Shown: piece after piece, positions 16,747 to 35,742 of the stretch
Numbering within the stretch: the stretch's first letter is position 1
Layout of the letters: the number at the start of each line of letters is the position of its first letter
Assembly (NCBI GenBank): GCA_001779115.1
Contig: MFJF01000015.1
Span: 86,491 to 150,490 of the forward strand
DNA length: 64,000 bases
Direction: 5' to 3'
From: Candidatus Gottesmanbacteria bacterium RIFCSPHIGHO2_01_FULL_40_15
GTDB taxonomy: Bacteria; Patescibacteriota; Microgenomatia; 2-02-FULL-39-11
Notes under the pieces: model-generated
Seen by the model: the letters and a program-made list of their open reading frames with translations, nothing else
Database searches by the model: none
What the model was told of the DNA's origin: nothing
Position numbers and translations under genes: made by a program

Positions 16747-17447
16747 AAATCATGAATGAATATAATCAAAAAAGAATCAATCCGCCATTCTGGCAGCACG
16801 ACTGTCACATATTAAAAAGGCTTTATCGTGAAATTAAAATTGAAGTGCACCGGTGGGTTAATAAAAATTCTGAGGTTTTGGATTACGGTTGCGGCCCGGC
16901 TCCATATGAACATTTATTGACCGGACGATGTTCCCGCTATATTAAATTGGATATCGGAAAAAACAACTCGGCTGATATCCTTGTCCTGGAGAACGAAAAA
17001 ATTCCTCTGCCTGATTCGTCATGGGACGTGATACTTTCAACCCAGGTATTGGAACATGTGGCTGACCCCGGTTTTTACCTGTCTGAATGCCGCAGACTCT
17101 TAAAACCCGGCGGAAAACTGATATTGTCTACCCACGGCATCTGGCCCTATCATCCGTTTCCGGAGGATTATTGGCGCTTCACGGAATCAGGGCTTAAAAA
17201 AATATTGCGTGATAACCGGTTTAAGACAGTCAACTTTAAAGGACTTATCGGGCCGTTTGCTTCATCCGTCCAGTTCACTGTATTATTATTGGCAGACTTT
17301 CTTGTTAAAAAGCCTTTCCCGGCCAAATTGATTCTGGTTCTTTTATCAGTTATATCCAATATATCAATTTCAGTTTTAGACTCAATTTTTCCTTACCGTA
17401 AAAACAGTGATTCAAGCCTTTATTTTCTATGCGCCGAAAAATACTGA
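16743..17447 (+). CDS. Class I SAM-dependent methyltransferase
   Basis: Motif I 'VLDYGCGPAPY' and 'LKPGGKLILSTHG'. The C-terminal tail is hydrophobic. Confidence 0.6.
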   Translation: MKIMNEYNQKRINPPFWQHDCHILKRLYREIKIEVHRWVNKNSEVLDYGCGPAPYEHLLTGRCSRYIKLDIGKNNSADILVLENEKIPLPDSSWDVILSTQVLEHVADPGFYLSECRRLLKPGGKLILSTHGIWPYHPFPEDYWRFTESGLKKILRDNRFKTVNFKGLIGPFASSVQFTVLLLADFLVKKPFPAKLILVLLSVISNISISVLDSIFPYRKNSDSSLYFLCAEKY

Positions 17448-18820
17448 TCGGAATTATTTTTACCGGCCTCATATTGAGGTTTATCGGCCTCAACCAGAGT
17501 TTTTGGCTGGATGAAGCCGCTCAGGTAATTGAATCGGAAAGAGTTTTTGCCCAACAGATTGATTTGGCTTCTGATTTTCACCCGCCGCTTTATCACTTAC
17601 TGCTTCATTTTTGGCTTAAAATCGGAAACGGTGAAATATTCTCTCGGCTGCCTGAAGTTATAATGGGAGTTGTCAGTATTTTTTTGGTTTATGAAATTAC
17701 CCGCCTTTTAAAATTCAGCAATTTTTCCGCTCAATTAACCGCTTTTCTTTTGGCCGTCAATCCCTTTCATATTTATTATTCCCAGGAAGTCAGGCCATAC
17801 ATGCTGTTTAGCTTCCTATCACTGTTAGCAACCCGTTTTTTTCTGACCGGCAATTTAATTGCCCTGGCAATTGTTGTTTCCCTCTTGGTCTATACCAATT
17901 ATTTTGCGTTCTTTCTTCTTTTGGCATTTCCTGCCGCATCCCTTTTGTCCGGATATAAAAAAGACTTGAATAAAGTTTTACAATCATTTTTCTTGGCGTT
18001 TCTGATATTTTTGCCTTGGCTGCCTTCTTTAATGAGGCAATTGGAAATAGGTTTCGGAAACGGATTGCCCGGTTGGAAATCAGTTGTTTCGGTTTCCCCG
18101 TATAAGGCGATTCCTTTGATTTTAGCCAAGTTTATCTTCGGTAAAGCTTCAATTGATAATAATTTCATTTACGCACTGGTCCTTATGCCCTCCATCATTG
18201 CTTTTGCCGCCAGTGGTTTTCTTGCTTTTAAAAGTAAAAAATACCCTGTTTTGTTTATGCTTTTCTTCGTCCCTTTGATTTCAGCTTTGACAGTTTCATT
18301 TTTTCTGCCCGTTTTAGCTCCGCAAAGAATGATTTTTTTGTTGCCTTTTTTTCTGATGATAATTGCCGGATCGGCTGACATCTGGAAGAAATGGGGAATA
18401 TTTTTATCACTGGCAGTTGTCATCACTTCTCTTTTCGGCCTGATGCTTTATTATTTAAACGCGCGCTTCCAGCGGGAAGATTGGCGATCATCCGTGCAAT
18501 ATTTAAAAGAAGACTCATACTCAATAAAAAGTTTGGTGGCATTTGCTTTTCCGGAAGCTTTCGCTCCTTTTATCTGGTATAACCGGGGTATTCTGGAAAG
18601 TCGCGGTTATGCACAGGATTTCCGGGTTGGGCAGTCTGACATCCGGAGACTGAGTCTTGATTTATCAGGCAGGAATACGGTTTATTATTACAGTTACCTT
18701 GACAATCTGACTGATCCCAAAAATTGGATACAGCGTAAAATAAACGAAAACGGTTTCCAGTTGAAAAGTATCAGGGATTTTCCCGGAGTCGGTTTTGTCT
18801 ATAAATATGAAAAAGACTGA
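17429..18820 (+). CDS. GT-C family membrane glycosyltransferase (GT39/GT83 ArnT/PMT-like)
   Basis: 463 aa, polytopic, with the first-loop 'FWLDEAAQV' acidic DE motif diagnostic of PMT/ArnT-type glycosyltransferases. Confidence 0.6.
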   Translation: MRRKILIGIIFTGLILRFIGLNQSFWLDEAAQVIESERVFAQQIDLASDFHPPLYHLLLHFWLKIGNGEIFSRLPEVIMGVVSIFLVYEITRLLKFSNFSAQLTAFLLAVNPFHIYYSQEVRPYMLFSFLSLLATRFFLTGNLIALAIVVSLLVYTNYFAFFLLLAFPAASLLSGYKKDLNKVLQSFFLAFLIFLPWLPSLMRQLEIGFGNGLPGWKSVVSVSPYKAIPLILAKFIFGKASIDNNFIYALVLMPSIIAFAASGFLAFKSKKYPVLFMLFFVPLISALTVSFFLPVLAPQRMIFLLPFFLMIIAGSADIWKKWGIFLSLAVVITSLFGLMLYYLNARFQREDWRSSVQYLKEDSYSIKSLVAFAFPEAFAPFIWYNRGILESRGYAQDFRVGQSDIRRLSLDLSGRNTVYYYSYLDNLTDPKNWIQRKINENGFQLKSIRDFPGVGFVYKYEKD

Positions 18821-19568
18821 TCACCGCAAATACGCATTGGCTTTCAAGACTCTTTTGAAAGGGCTTATATTTTGGCCGGATTGGCATCCTGAGGTGGCTT
18901 TAAGATATTTGCCTGTTGTGGCTGAAATTAAAAAAATCAAACCCAAACCCAGCGTACTTGATGTCGGATCAGGCGGCCTGGGTATCGCACCGTATCTTAA
19001 AAAAAAAGTTACCGGAGTTGATATCAAATTCAACCCGCCATACCATCCCATGCTTGAAAAAATATTGGCTTCAGCCCTGAATCTGCCCTTTACCGATCGG
19101 GTTTTTGATGCGGTCATCAGTGTTGACACGATAGAACACCTCAATAAGTCGCAAAGGGGAAAAGCCGTATCGGAGATCATCAGAACGGCACGGGCGTTGG
19201 CCGTTATTGCCGTTCCCTGCGGCAGACAGTCACTTAAGCAGGATAAAAAGCTTCACCGGTATTACCGGAAAAAATTCGGTAAAAACTATGTTTTTTTTGA
19301 GGAGCAGATAAAATACAAACTGCCAGAAGAAGAAGAAATGGTTGAGTATATAAATCAGGCAGCTAAAATAAATAAAAGAAATTTTTTTCTCAAAATTATG
19401 GACAATGAAAATTTGGCCTTAAGGGAATTTCTGATGAAAGGCTGGATGTCAGAAAACTTCGCCGTCAATATTCTTTTCAGGAAGGTATTTCTTTTGGCGA
19501 TTCCGTTAATGTCAAAGTTAAACGGTAAACCTGCCTACCGTAAAATCTTTATTGTTAAATTAAAATGA
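18795..19568 (+). CDS. Class I SAM-dependent methyltransferase
   Basis: Motif I 'VLDVGSGGLGIAPYL' and 'VISVDTIEHL'. Confidence 0.55.
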   Translation: MSINMKKTDHRKYALAFKTLLKGLIFWPDWHPEVALRYLPVVAEIKKIKPKPSVLDVGSGGLGIAPYLKKKVTGVDIKFNPPYHPMLEKILASALNLPFTDRVFDAVISVDTIEHLNKSQRGKAVSEIIRTARALAVIAVPCGRQSLKQDKKLHRYYRKKFGKNYVFFEEQIKYKLPEEEEMVEYINQAAKINKRNFFLKIMDNENLALREFLMKGWMSENFAVNILFRKVFLLAIPLMSKLNGKPAYRKIFIVKLK

Positions 19569-20704
19569 AAATTGCCATTGATGTTTCCCAGGTAGTTTTC
19601 GAGGGAACCGGTGTAGCCAATTACACCAGGGATCTTATTTTTAATCTTCTCGTCAAAGACCGCCGGAATCAATTTATTTTATTTGGATATTCCCTCAGGA
19701 GAAAAAAAATTCTGGATTCATTTTTAAAAAGCATTCCCCGGGAAAACGGCCGGATTAAATGTATATCACTGCCCGTTCCGCCCTCCCTGGCTGACCTCAT
19801 CTGGAACAGGTTTGGCATTTTATCCCTGGAGCATCTGATAGGGCCGGTAGATATTTATCACTCATCTGACTGGATACAGATTCCTTCCCCCGCCAAAAAC
19901 ATTACCACCGTTCATGATCTGGTTGTTTATAAATATCCGGAGACTTCATCTCCTTCAATTATTGCTGTTCAAAAAAGGCGGCTTGCCCGCGTTATCAAGC
20001 ATTGCCGTCTGATACTTTCTGATTCCATGGCTACCAAAAAGGATATTATTGACATTTTACAGGTGAATGAAAACAGAATTTCAGTGGTTTATCCCGGAAT
20101 TTCCCCGATTTTTAAGCCTGTCCCTGAAGAAAAAATTAAAAAGGTTTCAAAAAAATACAATATAAATTATCCTTATATTTTATCAGTGGGAACAAACGAA
20201 CCCAGGAAAAATATAACCAGTTCTGTTGACGCATTTAATATATTTTTAAAAAACCTGCCGCCCCGTGAAACAAAGGAAAAACCGGCTCTTATTATTGTCG
20301 GAAAAAAAGGCTGGAAAAGTAATTTTTCAAGCCATACTCCTGAAATTATTAACCTCGGTTCAGTTGACAGACAAGACTTACCCTCTCTTTACGGCGGAGC
20401 CCGATTTTTAGTTTATCCCTCTCTTTATGAAGGTTTTGGCTTGCCCGTGGTTGAAGCTATGGCCTGCGGTTGTCCGGTCATTACCAGCAATAAAGGTTCG
20501 CTTGCCGAAGTTGCCGGACAGGCGGCATTAATTGTCGATCCTCAAAAGCCTGAGGATTTGGCCATTGCCATGATAAATCTGGAAACGGATAATAGGCTGA
20601 GGAAAAAACTTATCGCCGCAGGCTTAATAAACTGCCGCCGCTTTTCCTGGTCAACGGCGGTCGAAAAAGTTCTTTTAGCCTATAACAGTTTAATAAAAAA
20701 ATAA
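19565..20704 (+). CDS. Glycosyltransferase family 4
   Basis: 'YEGFGLPVVEAMACGCPVITSN' EX7E motif and the N-terminal 'MKIAID' start typical of WbdA/B/C-like GT4 enzymes. Confidence 0.75.
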   Translation: MKIAIDVSQVVFEGTGVANYTRDLIFNLLVKDRRNQFILFGYSLRRKKILDSFLKSIPRENGRIKCISLPVPPSLADLIWNRFGILSLEHLIGPVDIYHSSDWIQIPSPAKNITTVHDLVVYKYPETSSPSIIAVQKRRLARVIKHCRLILSDSMATKKDIIDILQVNENRISVVYPGISPIFKPVPEEKIKKVSKKYNINYPYILSVGTNEPRKNITSSVDAFNIFLKNLPPRETKEKPALIIVGKKGWKSNFSSHTPEIINLGSVDRQDLPSLYGGARFLVYPSLYEGFGLPVVEAMACGCPVITSNKGSLAEVAGQAALIVDPQKPEDLAIAMINLETDNRLRKKLIAAGLINCRRFSWSTAVEKVLLAYNSLIKK

Positions 20705-20716
20705 GGATCGGATAAT

Positions 20717-21862
20717 ATGCTGATCGGAATCGATGCCAATGAAGCCAATTCTATCGACCGGGTCGGTATCGGCCGTTATGCCTTTAATGTTTTGACGGGT
20801 TTGAATAATTTCCGGAAAAAAAGAAAAAAAGACAGCGTTTCTTTCCGGATCTATCTGAAAAACAAAAAATTGCCGGAACTGCCGGAAAGCGGCAGTTTTT
20901 GGCAGTACCGCCAAATAAGACCGGGCTTTCTCTGGACTCAAACCGGTCTGCCGTTATATCTTGGTCTGACACGGGAAAAACCCGATTTATTGTTTTCCCT
21001 TTCCCATTACGCTCCTAAATTTTCTCCTGTTAAATCGGTTATATCAGTCATGGATTTATCCTATATCCGTTATCCCAAGTTATTTAATAAAACGGATCTT
21101 TATAAACTGAAAAGCTGGACTTCCTTTTCAGTCAGCCAGGCAGCCGGAATCGTCACTATCAGCCATTTTTCCAAATCGGAAATTATCGATTATTACCGGG
21201 TTGATTCCTCTAAAATAACCGTTGCCTACCCGGGGTTTGATCAAAAGCAGTTTAATCCGGATATAAATCCTAAAGTAATTGGTCCGCTTAGGACAAAGCT
21301 TAACTTTCGGGGTAAGTATATCCTTTATGTCGGAACTCTCCAGCCGCGTAAAAACATATCCGGTTTAATTGAAGCATTTTCCCGCCTGGAATTGAAAGAT
21401 GTAAAACTTGTTATAGCCGGAAAAAAAGGTTGGGCATATAAAGAAATATTCAATAGGTCCGGCGTCCTTAATATTTCAGATAAAGTTTTATTTACCGGCT
21501 ATGTTACCGATGCACAATTGGCCGGTCTCTACAATAACGCCCTCTGTTTAGTCCTGCCTTCCTATTACGAGGGTTTCGGATTGCCCGTGGTTGAAGCGAT
21601 GGCCAGCGGTTGTCCGGTGATTGCCTCAAACTGCAGCAGTTTGCCGGAAATCGTCTCAGATGCCGGAGTTCTAATAAATCCTGATGATACTAAAAGTATG
21701 GCGGCGGCAATTAATAAAGTAGTAGTAAGCTCCCGTTTGAGAAAATTCCTGATCGGAAAGGGTTTGAAAAGATCAAAAGAGTTCAGTTGGGAAAAATGCG
21801 CCAAAATCGTCTATACTTTCATTACCGGGTTATCCCACAAAAGTAACCGGATTGAAAACTGA
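20717..21862 (+). CDS. Glycosyltransferase family 4 (tandem paralog of the 19565 gene)
   Basis: 'YEGFGLPVVEAMASGCPVIASN'. High DNA identity with the upstream gene across the motif region. Confidence 0.75.
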   Translation: MLIGIDANEANSIDRVGIGRYAFNVLTGLNNFRKKRKKDSVSFRIYLKNKKLPELPESGSFWQYRQIRPGFLWTQTGLPLYLGLTREKPDLLFSLSHYAPKFSPVKSVISVMDLSYIRYPKLFNKTDLYKLKSWTSFSVSQAAGIVTISHFSKSEIIDYYRVDSSKITVAYPGFDQKQFNPDINPKVIGPLRTKLNFRGKYILYVGTLQPRKNISGLIEAFSRLELKDVKLVIAGKKGWAYKEIFNRSGVLNISDKVLFTGYVTDAQLAGLYNNALCLVLPSYYEGFGLPVVEAMASGCPVIASNCSSLPEIVSDAGVLINPDDTKSMAAAINKVVVSSRLRKFLIGKGLKRSKEFSWEKCAKIVYTFITGLSHKSNRIEN

Positions 21863-22469
21863 TATTATGGCCGTCTTTTACGATAAGAACAAACAAAGGT
21901 TGTCAACCGGGCAGGCTTTGAACAAAATCCTTAACCGGTTCAATAACATATTTCTTGATTTTGAATTAATGCTTTTAAGAATTACCGGCAATATTCCGAG
22001 CCATACGTTCCGCTTGTTTGTTTACAGGTTGGCCGGTGTAAAAATAGGCAAAGGTTCAGCCGTTCATATGTGGTGTAATTTTTTTTATCCCCCAGGTATC
22101 ACCATCGGAACGGATTCGGTTATCGGAGACCACTGCTTTCTAGACGGCCGCGATACCCTTAATATCGGCAGCCATGTTGATATTGCCTCGGGTGTTTTGA
22201 TTTATAACTCCCAGCACGATATTGAAAGCCCCGATTTTGGTGCTGTTTACGGCCCGGTCGTAATTGGGGACTACGTTTTTATCGGACCCCGAAGCATCAT
22301 CCTTCCGGGGGTAACAATCGGAAAAGGTGCCGTTATCGGCGCCGGAGCAGTTGTTACCCGCGATATGCCTCCTTTTTCAATTGCCGCCGGTGTACCGGCC
22401 CGAGTGATCGGGGAGAGGAAAAATAAAAATCCGGCTTACCGTTTAGGCCGGGCCAGGTTATTTCAATGA
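21852..22469 (+). CDS. Hexapeptide-repeat (left-handed beta-helix) sugar O-acetyltransferase (WcaF/NeuD-like)
   Basis: Repeated [LIV]-G-x-x-x-x-I hexapeptides (GITIGTDSVIGDHCFLDG...IGSHVDIASGVLIY...VFIGPRSIILPGVTIGKGAVIGAGAVV). Confidence 0.7.
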   Translation: MKTDIMAVFYDKNKQRLSTGQALNKILNRFNNIFLDFELMLLRITGNIPSHTFRLFVYRLAGVKIGKGSAVHMWCNFFYPPGITIGTDSVIGDHCFLDGRDTLNIGSHVDIASGVLIYNSQHDIESPDFGAVYGPVVIGDYVFIGPRSIILPGVTIGKGAVIGAGAVVTRDMPPFSIAAGVPARVIGERKNKNPAYRLGRARLFQ

Positions 22470-22476
22470 CATTCCT

Positions 22477-23388
22477 ATGGTTAAACGATATCTTCTTGAC
22501 GTTATTATTGTCAGTTTCAATACCGCCACCCTGTTACGGCAAGCCCTTCAGTCGGTCCAAACAGAAGTTGTTGAAAATAATATAAAGGAAGGGACCAGAA
22601 TTACAGTTATTGATAACGCTTCAACAGACGGCACTTCCCAGATGGTCAGGAAAAATTTTCCCGGCGTTTCGCTTATTGTCAATAATAAAAATACAGGCTT
22701 TGCCAAAGCTAATAATCAGGCTATCAGAAAAACCTCCGGTAAATATATACTACTTCTTAACAGTGATGCCATAGTCGGGAAAAAGGCAATTAATGCTCTT
22801 ATAAACGAGTTGGAAATAAATAGCAAAGCAGGCGGCTCCGGCCCGCGGCTCGTAAATTTTGACGGAGGTAATCAACCGTCTTTTGGGTTTTTCCCGACAC
22901 CATGGAGGGTCCTTTTTTGGATGCTGTTTATTGATGATATTAAATTCATTTCAGACTTTTTTAAGCCTTATCATGCCCGGCACGATTTTTTTTACCGCCG
23001 GAGGCGGACTGTCGACTGGCTATCCGGTGCCTGCATTTTGGTAAGAAGAGAAGCTTTTGAGAAGGCCGGTCTGTTTGACGAAAGTATATTTATGTACGGT
23101 GAAGAAGTTGAGTTTTTTTATAGAATGAAAAAATCGGGTTTTGAAGCAATTTTTACCCCTAATGCAATAGTCCGCCACAAAAAAGGCGGATCAGGCAGAG
23201 GAACGGAAAGCGGAATTGTTGAAGAATATCTGTTCATAGTCCATTTTTACCGTATATATTTTCCCGGATTAGTAGTTCCTGTCAGGTTTTTGCTGAAGCT
23301 GGGAGCTTTGCTGAGAATGATCCTTTTTGCTATAATCGGGCCTACAAAAAAGGTATCTCTTTATGCCAAAGCTTTTAAGGTGGCTTGA
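22477..23388 (+). CDS. Glycosyltransferase family 2
   Basis: 'DVIIVSFNTATLL...TVIDNASTDGT...LLLNSDAIV' GT-A motifs. Confidence 0.7.
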   Translation: MVKRYLLDVIIVSFNTATLLRQALQSVQTEVVENNIKEGTRITVIDNASTDGTSQMVRKNFPGVSLIVNNKNTGFAKANNQAIRKTSGKYILLLNSDAIVGKKAINALINELEINSKAGGSGPRLVNFDGGNQPSFGFFPTPWRVLFWMLFIDDIKFISDFFKPYHARHDFFYRRRRTVDWLSGACILVRREAFEKAGLFDESIFMYGEEVEFFYRMKKSGFEAIFTPNAIVRHKKGGSGRGTESGIVEEYLFIVHFYRIYFPGLVVPVRFLLKLGALLRMILFAIIGPTKKVSLYAKAFKVA

Positions 23389-26300
23389 TGACCGCCTGTT
23401 GTTTCTTTTCGCCGGTTTTTTATTGGCTTTTATTCCCCTGTATCCCAAATTACCGCTATTGGATGTTCTGCCGGGGTATATTGTCCGAATCAGACTGGAA
23501 GATATTCTTATAGCCGGATGTTTTGTTCTTTGGCTGATTTACCTGTTGCGCCGGAAAATAACCCTTTCCGGTAATCCTCTTTTAAAGCCGATTGCCGGAT
23601 ACCTGGCAGTCGGACTACTTTCAATAATATCGGCAATTTTTGTCATCAGGACAATTCCCCAGGAGTCTCTCCATATACAGAAATCCCTGCTCCACTTTTT
23701 CCGCCGGGTGGAATATTTTTCCCTTTTCTTTATTTTCTTCACTTCCGTAAAAAACATTAAACAGATTAAAACCTATCTGATAATCCTTATTGTTACCGCC
23801 CTTTTGGTCTCGCTTTACGGATTCGGACAGAAATATCTTTATTGGCCGGCATATTCGACCATGAACAGGGAGTTTGCCAAAGGCTGGCAGCTTTACCTCA
23901 CCGAGCACGCCCGGGTTCTGTCCACTTTCGGAGGTCATTACGATTTGGCCGCTTTTGCCATGATGATGCTTATAATTCTCTGGAGTCTTTTTTTCGGTTT
24001 GAAAAACCTGTTTTGGAGATTACTGGTATTGCCTGTATTGGCGGTTGTCTTCTGGACTTTAATTCTGACGGCCTCCCGCACTTCTTTTATCGCCTATTTG
24101 ACAGGACTGATACTGATGTTCTTCTTTTGGAGCTACAAAAAAGGCATTTTTTGGGCAATCTCGCGCTATCTGATTGTAAGCTTTACCTCAATTATAATTA
24201 TGCTGTCATTCGGCGACCTCTCGGAAAGATTTACCAAACTGTTGCGCATTGACCAGAGACTGTTAACCTTTTCACGGATTCTCAAATCCCCAATTGGTAA
24301 ACCTCCGGGGGATAAAGCTCTTTTTCTTGAGAATAATCCGCAGGCGGCTTTATCGGAAATAACTTCTAAAAGTGACGCGCCGCCCAAATTGGCGCGCCCG
24401 TCGGATGTCTTCGAAGACATTCCCCTGGTAGTAGAAAAAAACGGATCGAGATCGGCTGTTAAAAGAACTTATTCCCAAACAGCTTTTATGTATGACCTCT
24501 CAACAGCCATCAGGTTTGACGCTCTCTGGCCGATGGCTATAAAAGGTTTTGCCAAAAATCCGCTTCTCGGGAGCGGCTATGCCACTCTTAATAAATCTAA
24601 TCTGACTGATTTTACCGAAGCCGAATCAACTGATAACGATTTCTTGAGAAGCTTGGGGGAAACGGGAATACTGGGATTTGCTTTCTTTTACGGAACACTC
24701 CTCTTTATAGTATTTTACCTTTGGCGCAGTATCGAAGTGCTTAAAGATCCGCTGATTTTCGCATTTATCGCCGGATTTGCCGGATTGCTGTCAGGACTTC
24801 TGGTAAATGCGGTTTATATCGATGTTTTTGAGTCTTCCAAAGTCGCACTTTCCTTCTGGGCATTAACCGGCATTACTCTGTCGGCGGTAAAAATAGCCAG
24901 GACAGGCAAGGGGAAAGTTTTGGAAAAACCCAGACTGGCTGATCTGGATAAGTTTATTACCGGTGTTAAATCAGCAGTTAAAAAGATAATCACAAGCCAT
25001 TATTTTTACCTTTTTTTAATAATGGTTTTGGCTTTTTCCCTTAGATTGTACCGGATAAAAACACCGTTGGCCGATTGGCATTCCTGGCGCCAGGCCGATA
25101 CGGCCAGTGTCTCCAGAAATTTTATTAAACAAGGAATTAATGTACTTTATCCGACATATGACGATCTTTCCAACGTCGCTTCAGGTTATGATAATCCTAA
25201 AGGCTTAAGATTTGTCGAATTCCCCGTTTACAATGTGGTTCATGTATTTGTTGATCAGTTAATTACCGGGTACGATCTGGTTATCAAAGGCAGATTGACA
25301 TCCGTTATTGCCTCTCTTTTTTCCTGTCTTTTTCTTTTTCTTATTGTCAGAAAATACCATTCCGCCGCCGCTGCTTTTCTTTCTTCCTTCTTTTTCGCCG
25401 TTATACCCTATAATATTTTTTTCAGCCGTGTTATTCTCCCCGAACCTTTACTGGTGGCTACCAGTCTGGCTATGGTTTATTTTTTCGACAAGTGGCTCGA
25501 AAAAAAGTCTTTAAGCCGAATGTTACCCGCGCTTATATTTTCCGCTCTTTCCCTTTTGATAAAACCTTTCGCGGCCTTTCTGTTTTTACCCATGATTTAT
25601 CTCTGGTTTATTCGTTTTAGGTTTAAGGCCGGTTCAGTTGCCGGACTGTTATTGTTTATGGCAGCGGCCAGCCTGCCCCTTTTAATATGGCGGTGGTGGG
25701 CCGGTCATTTTCCCGAAGGAATTCCGGCTAATATGTGGCTCCTTAATGGTGACGGTATCCGTTTTAAGGGAGCCTTCTTTTATTGGCTTTTTGCCGACAG
25801 GTTAGGCAGGCTTATTCTGGGATATTTCGGTTTGCCGCTTTTAGTATTTGGAATTCTGGCGGAAAAAAACAGGGAAGGGCATTTATTTAATATTTGGGGT
25901 CTGTCCATGCTTTTATATATAACGGTCTTTGCCACGGGTAATGTCCGTCATGACTATTATCAGGTTCTCACCATACCGGTAATAACAATTTTTCTTGCTA
26001 AAGGGGTATTATTTTTAATTAGTCAGAATAAAAATTTGTCCGGCCGTCTCAAAGTGTACGCCATTCTAATTGTCCTTTTTATTTTCATGGAAATGTTCGG
26101 TTGGTATTTTATCCGGGATTTTTACAATATTAACCATCCGGAAATAGTGGAAGCCGGCCGGGCGGTAGAACTGAAGACTCCGGGTAACTCGCTTGTAATC
26201 GCTCCCTATAACGGCGATACCGCTTTTCTGTTTCAGACTCAGCGTGCCGGCTGGCCGGTTATGGAAAAATCAGTGGAAGAAATGATCGGTATGGGCGCAC

Positions 26301-26455
26301 ATTTCTATGTTTCGGTTAATTTTGACGGTCTGACTGACCGGCTGTTTCAGGATTCCATCGCCATGGACCCGGTCAAAAGGAAATATAAATTAATTGAAAA
26401 GACCGATAAATTTGTTCTTATTCAGCTGGTTCCCGACAGAAAGCTTCCAAAATAA
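23363..26455 (+). CDS. 1030-aa fusion: N-terminal O-antigen-ligase/Wzy_C-type polytopic domain + C-terminal GT-C (ArnT/PMT-like) polytopic domain
   Basis: A single uninterrupted ORF. Residues ~1-500 are polytopic, with a Wzy_C-like segment 'LILTASRTSFIAYLTGLILMFFF' and a long soluble loop. Residues ~540-1030 form a second polytopic block that begins with 'LADWHSWRQADTASVSRNF...LYP', typical of ArnT-like GT-C proteins. Confidence 0.5.
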   Translation: MPKLLRWLDDRLLFLFAGFLLAFIPLYPKLPLLDVLPGYIVRIRLEDILIAGCFVLWLIYLLRRKITLSGNPLLKPIAGYLAVGLLSIISAIFVIRTIPQESLHIQKSLLHFFRRVEYFSLFFIFFTSVKNIKQIKTYLIILIVTALLVSLYGFGQKYLYWPAYSTMNREFAKGWQLYLTEHARVLSTFGGHYDLAAFAMMMLIILWSLFFGLKNLFWRLLVLPVLAVVFWTLILTASRTSFIAYLTGLILMFFFWSYKKGIFWAISRYLIVSFTSIIIMLSFGDLSERFTKLLRIDQRLLTFSRILKSPIGKPPGDKALFLENNPQAALSEITSKSDAPPKLARPSDVFEDIPLVVEKNGSRSAVKRTYSQTAFMYDLSTAIRFDALWPMAIKGFAKNPLLGSGYATLNKSNLTDFTEAESTDNDFLRSLGETGILGFAFFYGTLLFIVFYLWRSIEVLKDPLIFAFIAGFAGLLSGLLVNAVYIDVFESSKVALSFWALTGITLSAVKIARTGKGKVLEKPRLADLDKFITGVKSAVKKIITSHYFYLFLIMVLAFSLRLYRIKTPLADWHSWRQADTASVSRNFIKQGINVLYPTYDDLSNVASGYDNPKGLRFVEFPVYNVVHVFVDQLITGYDLVIKGRLTSVIASLFSCLFLFLIVRKYHSAAAAFLSSFFFAVIPYNIFFSRVILPEPLLVATSLAMVYFFDKWLEKKSLSRMLPALIFSALSLLIKPFAAFLFLPMIYLWFIRFRFKAGSVAGLLLFMAAASLPLLIWRWWAGHFPEGIPANMWLLNGDGIRFKGAFFYWLFADRLGRLILGYFGLPLLVFGILAEKNREGHLFNIWGLSMLLYITVFATGNVRHDYYQVLTIPVITIFLAKGVLFLISQNKNLSGRLKVYAILIVLFIFMEMFGWYFIRDFYNINHPEIVEAGRAVELKTPGNSLVIAPYNGDTAFLFQTQRAGWPVMEKSVEEMIGMGAHFYVSVNFDGLTDRLFQDSIAMDPVKRKYKLIEKTDKFVLIQLVPDRKLPK

Positions 26456-26459
26456 CTTT

Positions 26460-27656
26460 ATGAGAATTCTCATGCTTACTCCTTATTTGCCTTACCCTTT
26501 ATGGTCCGGCGGACAAATCAGAACTTTTAATTTGTTGAAAAATCTTGCTGAAAAACACCAGATAACCCTTTTTTCCTTTATCAGGCAGGATTCGGAAAAG
26601 CAAAATATTCCCATACTTAAAAAATACTGCGATGAGGTGAAAGTTTTTGTGAAAAGACCTCCCTGGTCAATAACATCTTTGCTATTATCCGGTATTACCT
26701 ATTATCCGCTGGTTGTTTGCATGTATTTGAACAATGAATTGAAAAAAAATATCGCCGAAGCGATTGACAGGAAACATTTCGATCTGATTCATGCTGAAAC
26801 ATTTTACGTCATGCCCAATATTCCCCAATATGATATCCCCATTTTCCTGGCAGAACAGACCATAGAATATCTGGTTTACGATCATCATACTCAAAATGTC
26901 AACTTTATGCCTAAAAAAATGCTGATGGACTGGGATGTTTTTAAAATCCGCTTTTGGGAAAAACGTTTTTGGAAAAAAGCCGAAAAAGTGATTGCCATGT
27001 CGGAAAGCGATAAAACTTTAATGAAGAAAATGTTGCCTGATTTGTCCGTTGATATTGTGCCAAACGGTGTTGATACGCAATTTTTCTCCTTCAATAAAAA
27101 ACATTCACCTCATAAAGTTAAAACAGTTCTTTTTGTCGGAAATTTCAAATGGCTCCAAAACCGGGAGGCTGCCGCATTTCTTCTTGATAAAGTCTGGCCG
27201 GTAATATTTAAAAAACTCGGTGACAATGTCAGATTATGGATTGTTGGAAAGCATCCCCCTCCACAAATAAGAAAAAAAACACCTAAAAATGTAACCGTTT
27301 CCGATGACATTGACGATATAAGATATGCCTATTACCGCTCTGATTTGCTGCTGGCTCCTATCTACGGACCTGGCGGCACCCGTTATAAAATTCTGGAATC
27401 AATGGCGGCCGGTGTTCCTGTCGTCACCACTTCAACCGGAATTGAGGGTCTGTCGGCCGTTAATTTCCGTCATGCCGTAATCAGTGACAGTGCCCGCGGG
27501 TTAGCTGACAGCTCTATTAAAGTATTAACGGACCCAAAGCTCTATAACCGCTTGGCCGAAAACGGCAGACATCTGGTTGAACAGGATTACAGTTGGAAGA
27601 AAATAGCCGGCAAACTGGACTTGATTTATCAAAAAGCGGTTGCAGGTCGGATATGA
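26460..27656 (+). CDS. Glycosyltransferase family 4
   Basis: An in-frame internal ATG gives the canonical GT4 N-terminus 'MRILMLTPYLPYPLWSGGQIR'; the longer track ORF start at 26394 overlaps the upstream gene. The C-terminal 'ESMAAGVPVVTT' fits the fold. Confidence 0.7.
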   Translation: MRILMLTPYLPYPLWSGGQIRTFNLLKNLAEKHQITLFSFIRQDSEKQNIPILKKYCDEVKVFVKRPPWSITSLLLSGITYYPLVVCMYLNNELKKNIAEAIDRKHFDLIHAETFYVMPNIPQYDIPIFLAEQTIEYLVYDHHTQNVNFMPKKMLMDWDVFKIRFWEKRFWKKAEKVIAMSESDKTLMKKMLPDLSVDIVPNGVDTQFFSFNKKHSPHKVKTVLFVGNFKWLQNREAAAFLLDKVWPVIFKKLGDNVRLWIVGKHPPPQIRKKTPKNVTVSDDIDDIRYAYYRSDLLLAPIYGPGGTRYKILESMAAGVPVVTTSTGIEGLSAVNFRHAVISDSARGLADSSIKVLTDPKLYNRLAENGRHLVEQDYSWKKIAGKLDLIYQKAVAGRI

Positions 27657-28585
27657 AAAAAAAAGAGAAATTACTTACCGTGGTTATTGTCAGCTACAAT
27701 TCGGGAAATTATCTTCTGGATTGTCTGGATTCATTAAAAAAATCCCGATTTCCCCGGAAGTTGATGGAGATAATTATTTTTGATAATGCTTCAAACGACA
27801 ATACTGTTTATAACGTCAGGCGGAGATATCCCCAAATAACTCTAATTACAAATACAATAAATTCGGGTTTTGCTTCAGCCAATAATAAGGCTTTGTCATA
27901 CGCTTCGGGGAAATATATTCTTTTTCTCAATCCCGATACGCTGATCCCGCCTGACACTCTGCCTGAAATCGTCAGGTTTATGGAAACAAAAAAAAATGCT
28001 GCCGTTTCTACCTGCCGGGTGGAATTGCCTGATAAAAACCTTGACGATGCCAGTCACCGGGGATTTCCGACACCCTGGAATGCCCTTTGTCATTTCCTGG
28101 GTTTAAGCAGATTATTTCCCGGCAGTTTGATATTTAACGGTTATCATTTGGGTTACCGTAATTTGGATAAAATCCACCGGATTGACAGTTGCGCCGGTGC
28201 CTTCATGCTGGTAAGAAAATCAGCCGGTGACCAAGTACGCTGGTTCGATGAAGATTATTTCTGGTATGGAGAAGACCTGGATTTTTGCTTCCGGATAAAA
28301 AAAGCCGGCCTCAATATTTATTTTTTCCCCCGTGTAAAAGTAATCCATTATAAGGGTATATCAAGCGGAATAAAAAAACATTCGGAAAAGCTGTCAACAG
28401 CCGGTTACGAGACAAAATTGCGATCTACCCGGGCCAGATTTGATGTCATGAGGATTTTTTACCGGAAGCATTACCGGTCGGGGGTATACCGAATACTCAC
28501 TCCGCTTGTTCTGATAGGAATTGCCGTTAAGGAACGATTGACTGTTTTAGGTTTAAAAAATTATCAATATGCGGATAGGATTTGA
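27653..28585 (+). CDS. Glycosyltransferase family 2
   Basis: An internal start gives 'MKKKEKLLTVVIVSYNSGNYL...IIFDNASNDNT...LFLNPDTLI'. The track's longer N-terminus overlaps the upstream gene. Confidence 0.7.
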   Translation: MKKKEKLLTVVIVSYNSGNYLLDCLDSLKKSRFPRKLMEIIIFDNASNDNTVYNVRRRYPQITLITNTINSGFASANNKALSYASGKYILFLNPDTLIPPDTLPEIVRFMETKKNAAVSTCRVELPDKNLDDASHRGFPTPWNALCHFLGLSRLFPGSLIFNGYHLGYRNLDKIHRIDSCAGAFMLVRKSAGDQVRWFDEDYFWYGEDLDFCFRIKKAGLNIYFFPRVKVIHYKGISSGIKKHSEKLSTAGYETKLRSTRARFDVMRIFYRKHYRSGVYRILTPLVLIGIAVKERLTVLGLKNYQYADRI

Positions 28586-29669
28586 CGCCAGGCTTATTAA
28601 TCAGTCAGGAGTAGGCCGTTACATCAGAAATCTTCTTGCCGGACTCCTTAAATTTGATCATGGCAACCGTTATTTTATCTTCACAAGAACAAAAGACTTA
28701 CAAAGAATTAACAAATTGCCGGGTAAAAACTTTGAAAAAATAGCTGTTGATTTAAAATGGCATTCACTTAAGGAGCAAGTATTAATGCCTCGAATTTTAT
28801 CCTCCTACGGATTGGACCTTGTCCATTTTCCTTATTTTAATGTGCCTGTATTTTACCGGGGTAAATTTATCGTTACTATTCATGACCTGATTGTTGATCA
28901 TGTTGAAACCGGCCGGGCTTCTACTTTACCTTACCCGCTTTATAAAATTAAAAGATTATTTTACCGCCGGACGGTAAAATCCGCGGTAAAAAGAGCTTCT
29001 GCCATCATTGCCATCTCCCAAAATACAAAAAATGAAATAGTCAGCCATTATCATGTTGATCCTCAAAAAATTACCGTAACTTACGATGGTCTTGACAGCA
29101 ATATAAAAAGACCGGAAAAGTTTTCCTCACTATACCCTTTTGACTACCTGCTTAATGTCGGCAATGCCTATCCCCATAAAAACCTGGAAACTTTGATAGA
29201 GGTATTTAGGGATAAAGCGATAAGTTCCCGTCTGAAGCTGGTTTTGGTCGGAGACGACCGGTTTTTTTACCCGCGCTTAAAAAGATTGGTTGCCCAAAAA
29301 TCGCTTGAATATTCCGTAATATTTTTTGGGATTGCCGATGACAGGCAGTTGGTGAATCTCTATCATAACGCCCGGGCACTTATTACCCCTTCATACATGG
29401 AGGGCTTTGGCTTGCCTAATCTTGAAGCGGTTTCGCTGGGTTGCCTGCCGGTTATATCCGATATTCCGGTATTTCGGGAAATTTGGGGAGATGATTTGAT
29501 AATGTTCGATCCGCGTGAGGTGAATGACCTGAAAAGAGCAATTTTGGAATTTTTAGCTTTATCAGAGTCAGATAAATTACAAATGCTTAAAAAAGCAGAC
29601 AAAAGAGCAACAAAGTTCTCCTGGCAAAAGACGGTTAAACAGACTCTTCTTCTTTATAACCGGGTTTAA
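28569..29669 (+). CDS. Glycosyltransferase family 4
   Basis: 'MRIGFDAR...GVGRYIRNL' N-terminus and 'MEGFGLPNLEAVSLGCLPVISD'. Confidence 0.7.
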   Translation: MRIGFDARLINQSGVGRYIRNLLAGLLKFDHGNRYFIFTRTKDLQRINKLPGKNFEKIAVDLKWHSLKEQVLMPRILSSYGLDLVHFPYFNVPVFYRGKFIVTIHDLIVDHVETGRASTLPYPLYKIKRLFYRRTVKSAVKRASAIIAISQNTKNEIVSHYHVDPQKITVTYDGLDSNIKRPEKFSSLYPFDYLLNVGNAYPHKNLETLIEVFRDKAISSRLKLVLVGDDRFFYPRLKRLVAQKSLEYSVIFFGIADDRQLVNLYHNARALITPSYMEGFGLPNLEAVSLGCLPVISDIPVFREIWGDDLIMFDPREVNDLKRAILEFLALSESDKLQMLKKADKRATKFSWQKTVKQTLLLYNRV

Positions 29670-32863: not shown

Positions 32864-33979
32864 ATGAAATTAGCCATAGTCTATGACCGGGTAGTTAAAT
32901 TCGGCGGCGCGGAAAGAATTTTAATGGCTCTGCATGAAATTTGGCCAAATGCTCCGCTTTATACGGCCGTCTACCGGCCGGAAAAAGCCCCCTGGGCCCG
33001 GCGTTTCCATATCAGAAGTTCTTTTTTGGATCATATTCCCTATGCCGAAAACATAATAGAGGTTCTCCCTTTTTTTACGCCCTACGCTTTTGAAAATTTC
33101 AATTTTGACGAATATGATATTGTTATCAGCATCACTTCCCAGGATGCCAAAAGTATTATCACCAAGCCGCAAACATTTCATGTCTGTTATTGCCTTACTC
33201 CAACCCGCTATTTGTGGAGCGGGTTAAATGAGTATTATAACCAGCCGGCTGCCGGTATTTTTAATCCCGGTGTACGTCTGGGTATGAAACTGTTTGTCAA
33301 CAAACTTCGCCGGTGGGATAAAATTTCCTCAAAAAGACCTGATAGTTATTTGAGTATATCCAAAACGGTAAAAAGAAGGATAGCTGCCTATTACAATAGG
33401 GAGTCTAAAGTTATATATCCGCCTGTAGATACGGAAGTTTTTAATCTGCCTAAAGTTAAAACTCTGAATGATTATTTTCTCATTGTCAGCAGGCTGGTGC
33501 CTTATAAAAGAGTAGATTACGCCATTGAGGCATTCAGCCAATTACCTTACCGGTTAAAGATTATCGGCTCCGGAATTGATGAGAAAAGGCTGAAAAAAAA
33601 CGCCGGAAAAAATATTGAATTTATCGGCAGTGATTTGACAGACCGGAAATTAGGCTGGTATTATCAGAATTGCCTGGCGCTGATATTTCCCGGTGAAGAA
33701 GACTTCGGCTTGACGGCAGTTGAAGCACAAGCTTGCGGACGTCCGGTAATTGCCTTGGGGAAGTCAGGTACAACGGAAACGGTAATAAACGGAAAAACAG
33801 GCTTATTTTATGATGAAAAGTCTGCAGACAGTTTGATAAGCGCGGTCAGGAAATTTTTCAAATACAGCTTTAATCCGGAAAACTGCAGGCAAAACTCACT
33901 TCGTTATTCGAAAAAACAGTTCAAACAGTTGATGAAATCTGAGATTGAAAATATTCGGCAAAACCTAAAATCAGTATGA
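32864..33979 (+). CDS. Glycosyltransferase family 4
   Basis: 'MKLAIVYDR' N-terminus and 'EEDFGLTAVEAQACGRPVIALG'. Confidence 0.7.
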   Translation: MKLAIVYDRVVKFGGAERILMALHEIWPNAPLYTAVYRPEKAPWARRFHIRSSFLDHIPYAENIIEVLPFFTPYAFENFNFDEYDIVISITSQDAKSIITKPQTFHVCYCLTPTRYLWSGLNEYYNQPAAGIFNPGVRLGMKLFVNKLRRWDKISSKRPDSYLSISKTVKRRIAAYYNRESKVIYPPVDTEVFNLPKVKTLNDYFLIVSRLVPYKRVDYAIEAFSQLPYRLKIIGSGIDEKRLKKNAGKNIEFIGSDLTDRKLGWYYQNCLALIFPGEEDFGLTAVEAQACGRPVIALGKSGTTETVINGKTGLFYDEKSADSLISAVRKFFKYSFNPENCRQNSLRYSKKQFKQLMKSEIENIRQNLKSV

Positions 33980-35058
33980 AAGCAATCATATTTGCCGGAG
34001 GCGTGGGAAAACGCCTTTGGCCGCTATCCCGAAAAAGTTCACCGAAACAGTTTGAAAAGATTATCGGGGATAAATCAACTCTGCAGCTTTCAATTGAAAG
34101 CATTTTGCCGGTTATTTCCTGGCAGGATATAAATATTTCAACCAATACCAAATATATCGGTCAGGTAAAGGAACAACTGCCGGTTTTGCCCGAAGAAAAT
34201 ATAATAGGAGAACCGGAAACAAGGGATGTCGGCCCTGCTGTTGCCCTGGCGACCGCTATTTTGCATAAAAAAACCCCGAAAACCCCCCTGGTAATACTCT
34301 GGAGCGATCATATTATCAAAAAAACCGGTCTGTTTCTTGATATTCTAAACTTTTGCCGTGAATATATTGAAAAAAATGATAAAAAAATTATCTTTATCAG
34401 CCAGAAAGCCAGATTTGCCAGTCAAAACCTGGGCTGGATAAAGTACGGTAATGTTAAATTTATCAAAAAAAATATTTCCTTTCATGAGTTTGCCGGTTTC
34501 CGTTACCGTCCTTCCCTGAAGGAAGCTGAAGATTTTCTCCGGGCAGGTAATTATGCCTGGAATACCGGATATTTTGTCACAACCCCTTCCTTTATCTGGT
34601 CTCTGTTTAAAAGCCACCAGCCTGAAATGTTTAAAAGCATGGAAAGAATTTCCAAAGCTTATTTAACCCCGCAATTTGAAAAAGTGCTGGATATTGAATA
34701 CCGGTTGCTGCCAAAAATTTCCTTCGATAACGCCATATTGGAAAAAATTAATATGGATAACGCTTTCGTTGTCGCGTCGGATTTGGGTTGGAGCGATATT
34801 GGAGCCTGGGAAGCTTTAAAGGAAGCCCTCCAGACGGAATCCGAGCAGAATGTAGTGAAAGGAAAAGTAGTCGTTACCGACTGTGAAGATTCGCTGATTT
34901 ATAATTATACCGACCAGCTCCTGGTGGCAATAGACGTGGATGGTTATCTTGTCGTCAATACCAAGGATGTTGTTCTGGTTTGTCATAAAAATTCCGTCCC
35001 CAAAATAAAAAAACTGGTGGAAAAACTATCCAAATCAGAAAATGATCATTTAGTTTAA
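33976..35058 (+). CDS. manC: Mannose-1-phosphate guanylyltransferase (GDP-mannose pyrophosphorylase)
   Basis: N-terminal 'IIFAGGVGKRLWPLSRKSSPKQF' matches the ManC/GMPP signature GGxGxRLWPLSR..PKQF. Confidence 0.75.
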   Translation: MKAIIFAGGVGKRLWPLSRKSSPKQFEKIIGDKSTLQLSIESILPVISWQDINISTNTKYIGQVKEQLPVLPEENIIGEPETRDVGPAVALATAILHKKTPKTPLVILWSDHIIKKTGLFLDILNFCREYIEKNDKKIIFISQKARFASQNLGWIKYGNVKFIKKNISFHEFAGFRYRPSLKEAEDFLRAGNYAWNTGYFVTTPSFIWSLFKSHQPEMFKSMERISKAYLTPQFEKVLDIEYRLLPKISFDNAILEKINMDNAFVVASDLGWSDIGAWEALKEALQTESEQNVVKGKVVVTDCEDSLIYNYTDQLLVAIDVDGYLVVNTKDVVLVCHKNSVPKIKKLVEKLSKSENDHLV

Positions 35059-35080
35059 TCCGTTATTTAACTCTTGTTAT

Positions 35081-35740
35081 ATGGTTGATGTTTCCGGAGA
35101 TTTATACGACAGATACTTAAAAAGGTTAACTGATTTTTTCCTTTCAACTGTGCTTATTATTTTATTTCTTCCGGTATCGGTTGTTTTGGCAATTTTGATT
35201 AAATTCGATAATCCCGGTCCAATATTCGCCGATACGCCGGAAAGGGTAGGCCAGAACGGCAGGCTTTTTAAAATGTTCAAGTTCCGTTCAATGATAGTCA
35301 ATGCCCATATGATTCTAAGACAGGATCCCAAATTCCGCGGTTTATATGCCAAATACAAAAGGAACAGTTATAAATTAAAGGATGATCCGCGGGTAACGAA
35401 ATTGGGAAAATTCATGCGCAAACATTCGCTGGATGAAATCCCCCAGCTGTTTAATGTGCTGATAGGCGACATGAGTCTCATCGGTCCGCGGGCTTATTAT
35501 CCGGATGAGTTGGATAATCAGCAGAAAAAATATCCCAAGACTCGTATTCTGGTAAAAAAAGTCCTGTCAATAAAGCCGGGTATTACCGGTCATTGGCAGG
35601 TATCAGGTAGAAGCGAAGTCAACTTTGACAAAAGAATCGCCATGGATGCCGATTATGTTCAAAAGCGGTCCTTGTGGTATGATGTTAGGATTCTTTTGGT
35701 TACCCCTTGGGCCATGATTACCGGCAAGGGTGCTGTCTGA
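35081..35740 (+). CDS. Small initiating phosphoglycosyltransferase (bacterial sugar transferase, PglC/WbaP C-terminal-domain type)
   Basis: 219 aa with a single re-entrant N-terminal helix and the 'PGPIFADTPERVGQNGRLFKMFKFRSM' and 'DEIPQLFNVLIGDMSLIGPR' motifs of PF02397 polyprenyl-phosphate hexose-1-phosphate transferases. Confidence 0.8.
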   Translation: MVDVSGDLYDRYLKRLTDFFLSTVLIILFLPVSVVLAILIKFDNPGPIFADTPERVGQNGRLFKMFKFRSMIVNAHMILRQDPKFRGLYAKYKRNSYKLKDDPRVTKLGKFMRKHSLDEIPQLFNVLIGDMSLIGPRAYYPDELDNQQKKYPKTRILVKKVLSIKPGITGHWQVSGRSEVNFDKRIAMDADYVQKRSLWYDVRILLVTPWAMITGKGAV

Positions 35741-35742
35741 AA

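Follow-up and report, generated by a model that had tools for sequence, protein, structure and literature searches.

Does the open reading frame (ORF) at 23,363–26,455 of the window analysed here, a 64,000 nt stretch of contig MFJF01000015.1 from Candidatus Gottesmanbacteria bacterium RIFCSPHIGHO2_01_FULL_40_15 (assembly GCA_001779115.1), encode a real fusion of two membrane glycosyltransferases, and if so, what would such a protein do? An earlier note on this DNA, made from the letters alone, had described an uninterrupted frame of 1030 codons that joins an O-antigen ligase/Wzy_C-like module (here the N-module) to an ArnT/PMT-like GT-C module (the C-module). The ORF is a genuine natural fusion and is evolutionarily conserved. 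For the protein as a whole, we favour, with somewhat better than even confidence, a one-time fusion of a Wzy-type polymerase and an ArnT/PMT_2-type GT-C glycosyltransferase that act on one and the same surface glycan. The features of the protein and its locus are collected in Table 1.

The single ATG-initiated frame is free of N or other ambiguous bases, and the other two forward frames are closed across it, with longest open stretches of 71 and 160 aa. A search of 5.8 billion proteins returned 1862 matches to the fusion protein, and the best 120 of these are nearly all 1000–1081 aa long, cover 93–100% of the query and share 50–69% identity with it. They come from JGI, ENA, NCBI and Logan assemblies that are independent of one another, and the named hosts among them are Candidatus Gottesmanbacteria, Microgenomates or Patescibacteria (NCBI taxonomy places Gottesmanbacteria within the Microgenomates group of Patescibacteria). 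Their database names are solely 'O-antigen ligase family protein' or 'glycosyltransferase family 39 protein', and no NCBIfam model matched the fusion protein. The uninterrupted frame described in the earlier note is therefore real, being kept in more than 120 homologs and in 32 genomes described below.

Relatives of the fusion were sought in one genome per GTDB species, using one peptide motif for each half and ranking by total match. At least 584 genomes were found to have a relative, and the best 78 loci were taken with 10 kb flanks. One uninterrupted ORF of 990–1061 aa is present in 32 loci, all of them with complete genes and with an identity of about 47% or more, while in another 34–35 an ORF for the N-module (433–637 aa) is directly followed by one for the C-module (465–534 aa); the rest of the 78 loci are cut by contig ends. 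Hosts of the split form are Curtissbacteria, Woesebacteria, Pacebacteria, Beckwithbacteria and unclassified Microgenomates. The gaps between the split genes are mostly −4, 0, +3 or +6 nt, and include GTGA overlaps and TAAGTG abutments, a hallmark that indicates translational coupling of the two genes. The break maps to query aa ~505–560, corresponding to the linker of the window protein. At this point a short K/E-rich tail closes the N proteins of split forms, whose C proteins start with MKK just before the first helix, whereas fused forms have a longer linker of ~30–35 residues.

When the modules were concatenated (993 columns) and a neighbour-joining tree was built, the 33 fused sequences, including that of the window, formed one clade with no split form inside it, which points to a single event of stop-codon loss that was then kept. 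To judge from this tree, the fusion arose once, in the common ancestor of a clade of Gottesmanbacteria-like Microgenomates, within the candidate phyla radiation (CPR). The comparison of fused and split genes that had been proposed in the earlier note thus gave a clear pattern, with fusion confined to one monophyletic clade and split but adjacent genes elsewhere, and it divides the note's statement that such a fusion is uncommon: this holds across bacteria but not within the Gottesmanbacteria-like clade, where fusion is the rule. The two modules diverge in parallel (identities of 73% and 67% to locus L001, and of 51% and 48% to L021), and in every complete locus examined the N gene stands directly before the C gene and is tightly coupled to it, even where their surroundings are variable. 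In an exhaustive 50%-identity library, full-length fusions make up only two or three clusters among 3449 matches, which are dominated by stand-alone N-type and C-type proteins.

An assembly or frameshift artefact joining two genes, a concern raised in the earlier note, might be suspected from a T7 run at 25,011, within the junction region, and from the presence of two genes in close relatives outside the clade. However, the same continuous frame is kept across the independent assemblies and the 32 species-representative genomes, which excludes a frameshift repair in practice, and simple read-through would not give the linker of the fused forms, which is longer and specific. Together with the monophyly of the fused forms, the conservation across assemblies effectively refutes an artefact, and the probability we would still attach to it is negligible.

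The two separate polytopic modules of the earlier description were recovered by Pfam domains, a hydropathy scan, AlphaFold2 helices and Foldseek. Both Wzy_C and PMT_2 score above their Pfam gathering thresholds in the window protein; among 24 fused and split orthologs, Wzy_C (PF04932) was matched above its cut-off in 22, and orthologs also matched PMT_2 (22/24) and PMT (13/24). By hydropathy and the AlphaFold2 model (mean pLDDT 78, pTM 0.62), the protein consists of 12 helices up to aa 513, a K/R-rich stretch (aa 514–545), 11 further helices and a C-terminal alpha/beta domain of 110 residues. The Wzy_C-like segment with a large soluble loop, as it had been described, corresponds to the Pfam match at aa 226–443 and to a loop of 140 residues (aa ~284–425) between transmembrane helices (TM) 9 and 10. 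Since the positive-inside rule puts the K/R-rich linker and the short K/R-rich loops in the cytoplasm, the large loop, the loop with the WRQADT motif and the C-terminal domain are predicted to lie outside, and in this topology, derived from helix order and K/R distribution, all invariant polar clusters fall outside the membrane. In Foldseek searches with the model, the N-half matched WaaL (7tpg, E 3e-3, TM-score 0.64 on the target) and the C-half, separately, the GT-C enzymes STT3, ArnT (5f15/5ezm), ALG12, PglB and Pmt4, with an E-value of 1.7e-6 and a TM-score of 0.59 on the target for ArnT 5f15, and a TM-score of 0.65 for ALG12. The pTM of 0.62 over two modules of near-equal size hints at some packing between them in the model.

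The nature of the N-module depends on a small number of residues. In E. coli WaaL, R215, R288 and H338 are functionally important residues of the Wzy_C motif and are conserved in PglL (PMC3643930); TfpM likewise depends on the His (PMC9829042). According to Meitil et al., ligases have two Args that bind the phosphates of undecaprenyl pyrophosphate (Und-PP) and a His for which a role in activating the acceptor has been proposed; the same clan holds ligases, SEDS proteins and many Wzy polymerases, and at the position of the ligase His there is an essential Asp in SEDS proteins and a conserved Asp or Glu in polymerase families (PMC10920833). When the N-module family was aligned by hhalign with E. 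coli WaaL and with a 26-member WaaL profile, R239 (LTASRTSF) fell on R215 (LTQTRATL) at an E-value of 1.6e-4. The alignment of the whole N profile ends at the loop insertion, and beyond this point a cut profile and a check of the Pfam register were used. The segment after the loop placed R384 on R288, D424-N425 on H338-N339 and D487 on D389. For the register check, which is independent of hhalign, the Pfam Wzy_C model served as a ruler for three WaaL proteins, that of E. coli among them. Counting back 19 residues from the one aligned to model position 149, the end of the model, leads to the His in all three and to D424 in the window protein; counting 13 residues onward from model position 3 leads to the first Arg of WaaL and to R239 of the window protein.

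R239, R289 and R384 are invariant in 67/67 fused and split sequences, and D424 is present in 66 of them, the remaining one having an alignment gap. The N-module thus retains the two Args of ligases and O-oligosaccharyltransferases (R239 and R384) but has Asp in place of their catalytic His (H338 in E. coli WaaL, H349 in NmPglL and H286 in TfpM). The pattern that the literature hypothesizes for Wzy polymerases, one or two Args plus an Asp or Glu at the ligase His, is found in full (R239, R384 and D424). An invariant Asp where ligases have His is a polymerase/SEDS signature and makes a ligase less likely, so that, on these residues, the N-module is more likely to be a polymerase. Of the two types left open in the earlier note, 'ligase' is probably the wrong sub-type, and polymerisation has the better support.

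The C-terminal half had been said to open with an ArnT-like GT-C signature, and this stands. The string WRQADTASVSRNF...LYP at aa 575–597 was placed by hhalign on W28-QPDET...IVP of E. coli ArnT, and in this alignment (E 1.7e-4) W575-R-Q-A-D579-T falls on W28-Q-P-D31-E-T and R616-F-V-E619-F-P on R57-Y-F-E60-K-P. The loop-1 motif has a single acidic residue (A578-D579), and hhalign aligned D579 with the Glu (E29) of the LDEA motif in a paralogous family of the same locus (w17429, see below). Invariant residues of the C-module include D579, E619 and the family-specific H863-D864 within TGNVRHDYYQ. AlphaFold2 predicts helices at 572–590 and 621–633 inside loop 1, giving the arrangement expected of a GT-C fold, an N-in polytopic core and a long first outer loop with juxtamembrane helices. 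With the PMT_2 and Foldseek matches, these features lead us to infer an ArnT/PMT-type GT-C enzyme that has kept the loop-1 Asp.

Comparison of all window proteins with the 78 loci by tblastn revealed a strongly conserved, co-linear block around the fusion or the gene pair, in which a priming transferase and seven GT2/GT4 enzymes are conserved. Wzx-type flippases (w5339 and w8326) are found upstream in the window and lie inside the block in some relatives, and a Wzx occurs within ±10 kb in only 8/77 loci. Among the window ORFs scanned with Pfam there was no other Wzy_C protein, and with the fusion carrying the only one found, together with the conserved gene set, the block reads as a Wzx/Wzy-type surface-polysaccharide locus. 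None of the arn-type genes (arnABCD, the donor pathway for 4-amino-4-deoxy-L-arabinose, Ara4N) is conserved in the block.

Table 1. Features of the fusion protein and its locus, in positions of the window (aa, residues of the 1030-aa protein).
Feature	Position	Strand	Basis
Whole fusion ORF, 1030 aa plus stop	23363..26455	+	ATG start; full-length homologs
N-module, aa 1-513, 12-TM Wzy_C-type (clan GT-C1-like), both termini predicted cytoplasmic	23363..24901	+	Pfam, Foldseek, helices, positive-inside rule
Pfam Wzy_C match, aa 226-443	24038..24691	+	E 2.3e-15, 57.1 bits, cut-off 31.7
R239, equivalent to E. coli WaaL R215, first essential Arg	24077..24079	+	hhalign, Pfam register; invariant 67/67
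Large extracytoplasmic loop, aa 284-425, with invariant R289, R384 and D424	24212..24637	+	Predicted topology, alignment
R384, equivalent to WaaL R288, second essential Arg	24512..24514	+	hhalign E 0.068, weak but colinear with first segment; invariant
D424-N425 at WaaL H338-N339, Asp instead of ligase catalytic His	24632..24637	+	hhalign, Pfam register
Predicted cytoplasmic K/R-rich linker, aa 514-545; stop/start site of relatives' two genes	24902..24997	+	10-28% identity between fused orthologs
C-module, aa 546-1030, 11-TM ArnT/PMT_2-type GT-C glycosyltransferase with predicted extracytoplasmic C-terminal domain	24998..26452	+	Pfam, Foldseek
WRQADT motif in extracytoplasmic loop 1; D579, predicted catalytic Asp	25085..25102	+	hhalign to EcArnT and w17429 family; invariant 67/67
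VEFP, with invariant E619, aligned with ArnT FEKP	25214..25225	+	hhalign
Pfam PMT_2 match, aa 643-776	25289..25690	+	E 1.4e-9, 38.8 bits, cut-off 26.1
TGNVRHDYYQ, invariant extracytoplasmic motif between TM9 and TM10 of GT-C module	25934..25963	+	Alignment
C-terminal soluble alpha/beta domain, aa 922-1030, predicted outside membrane	26126..26452	+	Hydropathy, AlphaFold2
w13072, 240-aa GT2, adjoins DUF2079 membrane protein w13807	13072-13794		
w17429, GT-C paralog of C-module, 463 aa, 9+-TM, LDEA...HPPLY motif	17429..18820	+	hhalign probability 98.2%, E 3.5e-14
Conserved upstream block	18795..23388	+	Pfam/NCBIfam, synteny
w18795, methyltransferase			
w19565 and w20717, two GT4			
w21852, WcaF-like acetyltransferase			
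w22477, GT2; end overlaps fusion ORF start by 26 nt			
Conserved downstream block (GT4, GT2, GT4)	26394..29669	+	Pfam/NCBIfam, synteny
w26394, GT4 (stp1-like)			
w27593, GT2			
w28569, GT4			
Conserved downstream block (GT4 to DUF4012)	32864..37662	+	Pfam/NCBIfam, synteny
w32864, GT4			
w33976, GDP-mannose pyrophosphorylase			
w35081, 219-aa small WbaP/PglC-type polyprenyl-phosphate phosphoglycosyltransferase (priming transferase)	35081-35740	+	
w35707, DUF4012 protein, followed by RecO and a tRNA synthetase	35707-37662	+	

In the pathway that we favour, the priming transferase and the seven GT2/GT4 enzymes would build an oligosaccharide on Und-PP, a pyrophosphate-linked carrier being implied by a priming enzyme of the phosphoglycosyltransferase type, and this oligosaccharide would then be flipped outward. 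The two retained arginines suggest that the N-module binds the flipped, Und-PP-linked oligosaccharide, and it would polymerise the bound repeat units, en-bloc transfer being less likely. The C-module would act on the same glycan at the outer face of the membrane, either by transferring a sugar from a polyprenyl-phosphate donor onto the repeat unit or polymer, or by handing the finished chain to its final acceptor, as has been proposed for WpsJ. If a sugar is transferred, mannose is a reasonable guess, given the conserved GDP-mannose synthase and the PMT-type similarity. We conclude that both modules are probably active enzymes with their active sites facing outside. The invariable adjacency of the two genes, their translational coupling and the retention of the fusion argue that the two steps are linked, and a physical or kinetic coupling of the two reactions may reasonably be expected from the fusion and the adjacency. 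A stronger form of this proposal, which we put forward tentatively and regard as possible rather than probable, is that the Wzy_C-type and GT-C enzymes form an obligate outer-face machine with two active sites throughout Microgenomates, covalently joined in Gottesmanbacteria, in which the chain would pass from the Asp-type polymerase directly to the tethered GT-C enzyme for decoration or attachment to the envelope.

A number of observations weigh against the pairing of a polymerase with a transferase. Retrieval with motifs of both halves biases the statement that the genes are always adjacent toward loci that have both. When full-length and half profiles were compared with all PDB sequences (E ≤ 10), nothing meaningful was found. 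Among solved structures, the N-half is matched best by a ligase, WaaL, and not by a polymerase, though few structures of polymerases exist. The placement of R384 and D424 on WaaL is weak taken alone (E 0.068), with the Pfam register agreeing exactly, and the equation of Asp with polymerase is a published hypothesis from family alignments and not a tested law. In the C-module, Phe620 occupies the position of the Lys of ArnT FEKP, a residue that contacts the carrier phosphate, so an ArnT-specific feature is missing. At the locus, no Wzz-type co-polymerase was identified, and neither a GtrB/ArnC-type lipid-P-sugar synthase nor a GtrA flippase is present in the conserved block, which is so packed that there is no space for a small GtrA-like ORF. 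The GT2 protein w13072, a weak candidate for the donor synthase, lies ~10 kb upstream of the fusion and is near the pair in few loci; its best NCBIfam matches (AglJ, PgfS, ArnC, Dol-P-hexose transferase and PpgS) are all below cut-offs, and it is a candidate for making the donor that the many GT-C enzymes of the window would use.

In an alternative that we consider unlikely, the N-module is a WaaL/PglL-like ligase or O-oligosaccharyltransferase and the C-module a PMT-like protein or lipid O-mannosyltransferase, so that the GT-C enzyme primes an acceptor (S-layer protein, pilin or glycolipid) with one sugar and the Wzy_C module adds a preassembled oligosaccharide en bloc. The Pfam family is named for ligases, WaaL 7tpg is the best solved structural match and both essential Args are kept, while PMT and PMT_2 are both matched in the other half, a GDP-mannose synthase is conserved in the block, and seven glycosyltransferases could make one large oligosaccharide instead of a repeat unit. 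CPR bacteria are not known to have lipopolysaccharide (LPS) or an outer membrane, and a protein or glycolipid acceptor would be plausible for that reason. Nevertheless, no acceptor protein gene is conserved beside the pair in the loci compared, the Pfam scan at E ≤ 1 gave no match of the fusion protein to PglL-specific models, and the His that is essential in WaaL, PglL and TfpM (PMC3643930, PMC9829042) is an invariant Asp here. That same substitution, along with the missing equivalent of ArnT Lys85 in the GT-C module, could instead mean that one of the modules is a dead scaffold, for instance a His-less Wzy_C protein that binds the lipid-linked glycan and presents it to the GT-C enzyme. This is very improbable, since dozens of polar or charged residues in the extracytoplasmic loops of both modules are invariant across 35–100% identity, among them both the Asp in place of the His and the loop-1 Asp of the C-module; active polymerases normally have Asp or Glu where ligases have their His (PMC10920833).

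The fusion might also be neutral, a loss of the stop codon between neighbouring enzymes of the same pathway that was tolerated through compatible topologies and brought no physical or kinetic coupling. Separate genes suffice in most lineages, the linker is poorly conserved (10–28% identity), and the N-module appears to fuse readily, being found also with other C-terminal regions, some of them Metallophos. But the fusion has been kept without reversal in a clade whose members share only ~47–69% identity, and the tight coupling of the pair, adjacent and in the same order, extends to every complete locus examined, which leads us to rate neutrality as quite improbable, below the ligase alternative. 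The preferred reading remains that of a Wzy-type polymerase fused to an ArnT/PMT_2-type GT-C enzyme.

Among known systems, Wzy-type polymerases (BP-Pol, clan GT-C1) resemble the N-module in being polytopic, with a large outer loop, and in having one or two conserved Args and, where ligases have their His, a conserved acidic residue (PMC10920833). Like Wzx/Wzy pathways, the window locus combines a priming phosphoglycosyltransferase with several glycosyltransferases of the cytoplasm and with Wzx flippases, and a single Wzy_C gene was found in its block. The N-module, however, has no assignment to a curated polymerase family, and differs from the polymerases by its fusion, or invariable adjacency, to a GT-C enzyme, an arrangement that is absent from a review of Wzy proteins (PMC12004945). 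With WaaL (E. coli K-12; C. metallidurans 7TPG; GT121) and PglL/TfpO/TfpM it shares the Wzy_C domain, a 12-TM fold and a long outer loop, and it keeps the equivalents of WaaL R215 and R288, but it differs from WaaL and PglL in its invariant Asp at His338 and its longer outer loop, and solved ligases gave no match to it at the level of sequence. WaaL hosts produce LPS, which the lineage of the window host is not known to have.

The C-module shares with ArnT (GT83), GT39 and the PMT_2 family the PMT/PMT_2 matches, the GT-C fold, the loop-1 Asp that corresponds to ArnT D31 and the E-x-P that corresponds to E60-K-P, as well as a predicted N-in, C-out topology and an outer C-terminal domain. It differs from ArnT in having A-D instead of D-E in the loop-1 motif and Phe for the phosphate-binding Lys, and from ArnT and PMT alike in its own invariant motifs, TGNVRHDYYQ and APYNGDTAF. 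The pair as a whole follows the pattern of Rosetta-stone gene fusions, with adjacent genes in most Microgenomates and one polypeptide in one clade. By that principle, proteins fused in one lineage interact or share a pathway elsewhere, which predicts a functional link but no mechanism.

The closest functional analogue of the N and C pair is the polysaccharide pellicle (PSP) system of Lactococcus lactis, a likeness of role. It has the flippase WpsG, the polymerase WpsI acting with WpsH, and a GT-C transferase, WpsJ, that follows WpsI and for which a role in final transfer has been proposed; three- and four-component systems for extracytoplasmic glycosylation (GtrABC, CsdAB/CflA and GacIJKL) have also been described (PMC9574508). 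As we propose for the window protein, a polymerase and a GT-C enzyme from one locus act sequentially on a flipped, lipid-linked glycan at the outer face of an envelope of the Gram-positive type. In all these systems, however, the enzymes are separate proteins, and the carrier in Lactococcus is monophosphate-linked, whereas in the window they form one polypeptide and a pyrophosphate-linked carrier is implied.

A search of the literature on Wzy_C/O-antigen ligase proteins fused to PMT_2/GT-C, or in Patescibacteria, found no description of the fusion architecture. The protein is a conserved covalent combination, undescribed until now, of two known families, and has the active-site signature of a non-ligase. 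The cooperation of Wzy proteins with decorating or anchoring enzymes is poorly understood, and such membrane proteins are difficult to work with and have yielded few structures. A natural fusion together with dozens of split-gene relatives provides strong comparative evidence that Wzy_C-type and ArnT/PMT-type enzymes work as a unit, and the fusion protein is a convenient construct for cryo-EM and reconstitution. If the two modules do form an obligate machine, it would be, as far as the literature shows, the first natural physical coupling of these two superfamilies of membrane glycosyltransferases, and would offer a ready-made, single-chain system for structural study of the hand-off from polymerase to transferase. 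The fusion is also a marker of a surface-glycan pathway that is conserved, and probably belongs to the core, in an uncultured CPR lineage about whose envelope chemistry next to nothing is known. Names given in databases, 'O-antigen ligase family protein' for instance, are probably misleading for this protein family. As the component families are already known, the interest is moderate and specialist.

The N-module is also encountered in other company. Many proteins of 1000–1270 aa in the public library (P0154, P0164, P0191 and others) share only this Wzy_C-type module with the fusion, and their C-terminal regions differ, some having a calcineurin-like phosphoesterase (Metallophos) domain, which indicates that the same module has been fused to other partners too. 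Among the relative loci, L008, L009, L014–L016, L018–L022 and others come from metagenome-assembled genomes of the binchicken assemblies whose records bear the title 'uncultured Gammaproteobacteria' or 'Pseudomonadales'; for L049 the title is 'Limisphaerales'. On a cluster specific to CPR, these titles look like placeholder or wrong taxonomic labels.

Several genes of the block itself deserve comment. At its head, w17429 is conserved in 47/78 loci, has no match in Pfam or NCBIfam, and represents an unannotated GT-C family. Two genes that interrupt the block at 29,905–32,854, encoding w29905 (470 aa, with a faint methyltransferase-like signal) and w31310 (514 aa, 4 TM, of no family), are common to only L001, L005 and L036 and look like a lineage-specific insertion. 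The DUF4012 protein, w35707, is 100% identical to a 639-aa protein of a Gottesmanbacteria RIFCSPHIGHO2_02_FULL metagenome-assembled genome, so that translation probably begins 12 codons after the listed TTG. Proteins with DUF4012 are over-represented in CPR and Gram-positive bacteria, and a link to loci for capsule or exopolysaccharide (EPS) has been made (PMC6744442). Bifidobacterium longum 105-A has a Wzx/Wzy-dependent EPS locus where a DUF4012 gene directly follows that of the priming transferase (PMC5412050), the same order as in the window. The model of w35707 is confident (pLDDT 84, pTM 0.81) and combines a TM helix at the N-terminus with a long bundle of helices and domains rich in beta structure; it matched nothing in the PDB by Foldseek at E ≤ 1e-3; the protein may have a fold without a solved representative. 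A role as a Wzz-like polysaccharide co-polymerase (PCP) was considered for it and rejected, or is at least unsupported, as Foldseek gave no PCP match.

The fusion lies inside a glycan super-cluster of ~40 kb (window 1–40,000) that is on the + strand almost throughout. It includes at least five further GT-C-like membrane proteins, namely w1113 (DUF2142), w2668 (PMT_2), w6652 (DUF6798, minus strand), w13807 (DUF2079) and w17429, together with PseC/LegC-like aminotransferases (w16 and w4218), several methyltransferases, and w10449, an LtaS/EptA-like 5-TM protein with a sulfatase domain. Just beyond it, a protein of 533 aa, PilM-like at its N-terminus and with a C-terminal LytR_C domain, is encoded at 40,092–41,693, followed at 41,707–43,446 (− strand) by one of 579 aa with about 9 TM helices, C-terminal tetratricopeptide (TPR) repeats and no family match for its membrane domain, an architecture like that of TPR-bearing GT-C or ligase-like enzymes. 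Near the end of the window (61,816–63,994), MraY-like (Glycos_transf_4) and FtsW/RodA genes form part of a cell-wall synthesis cluster.

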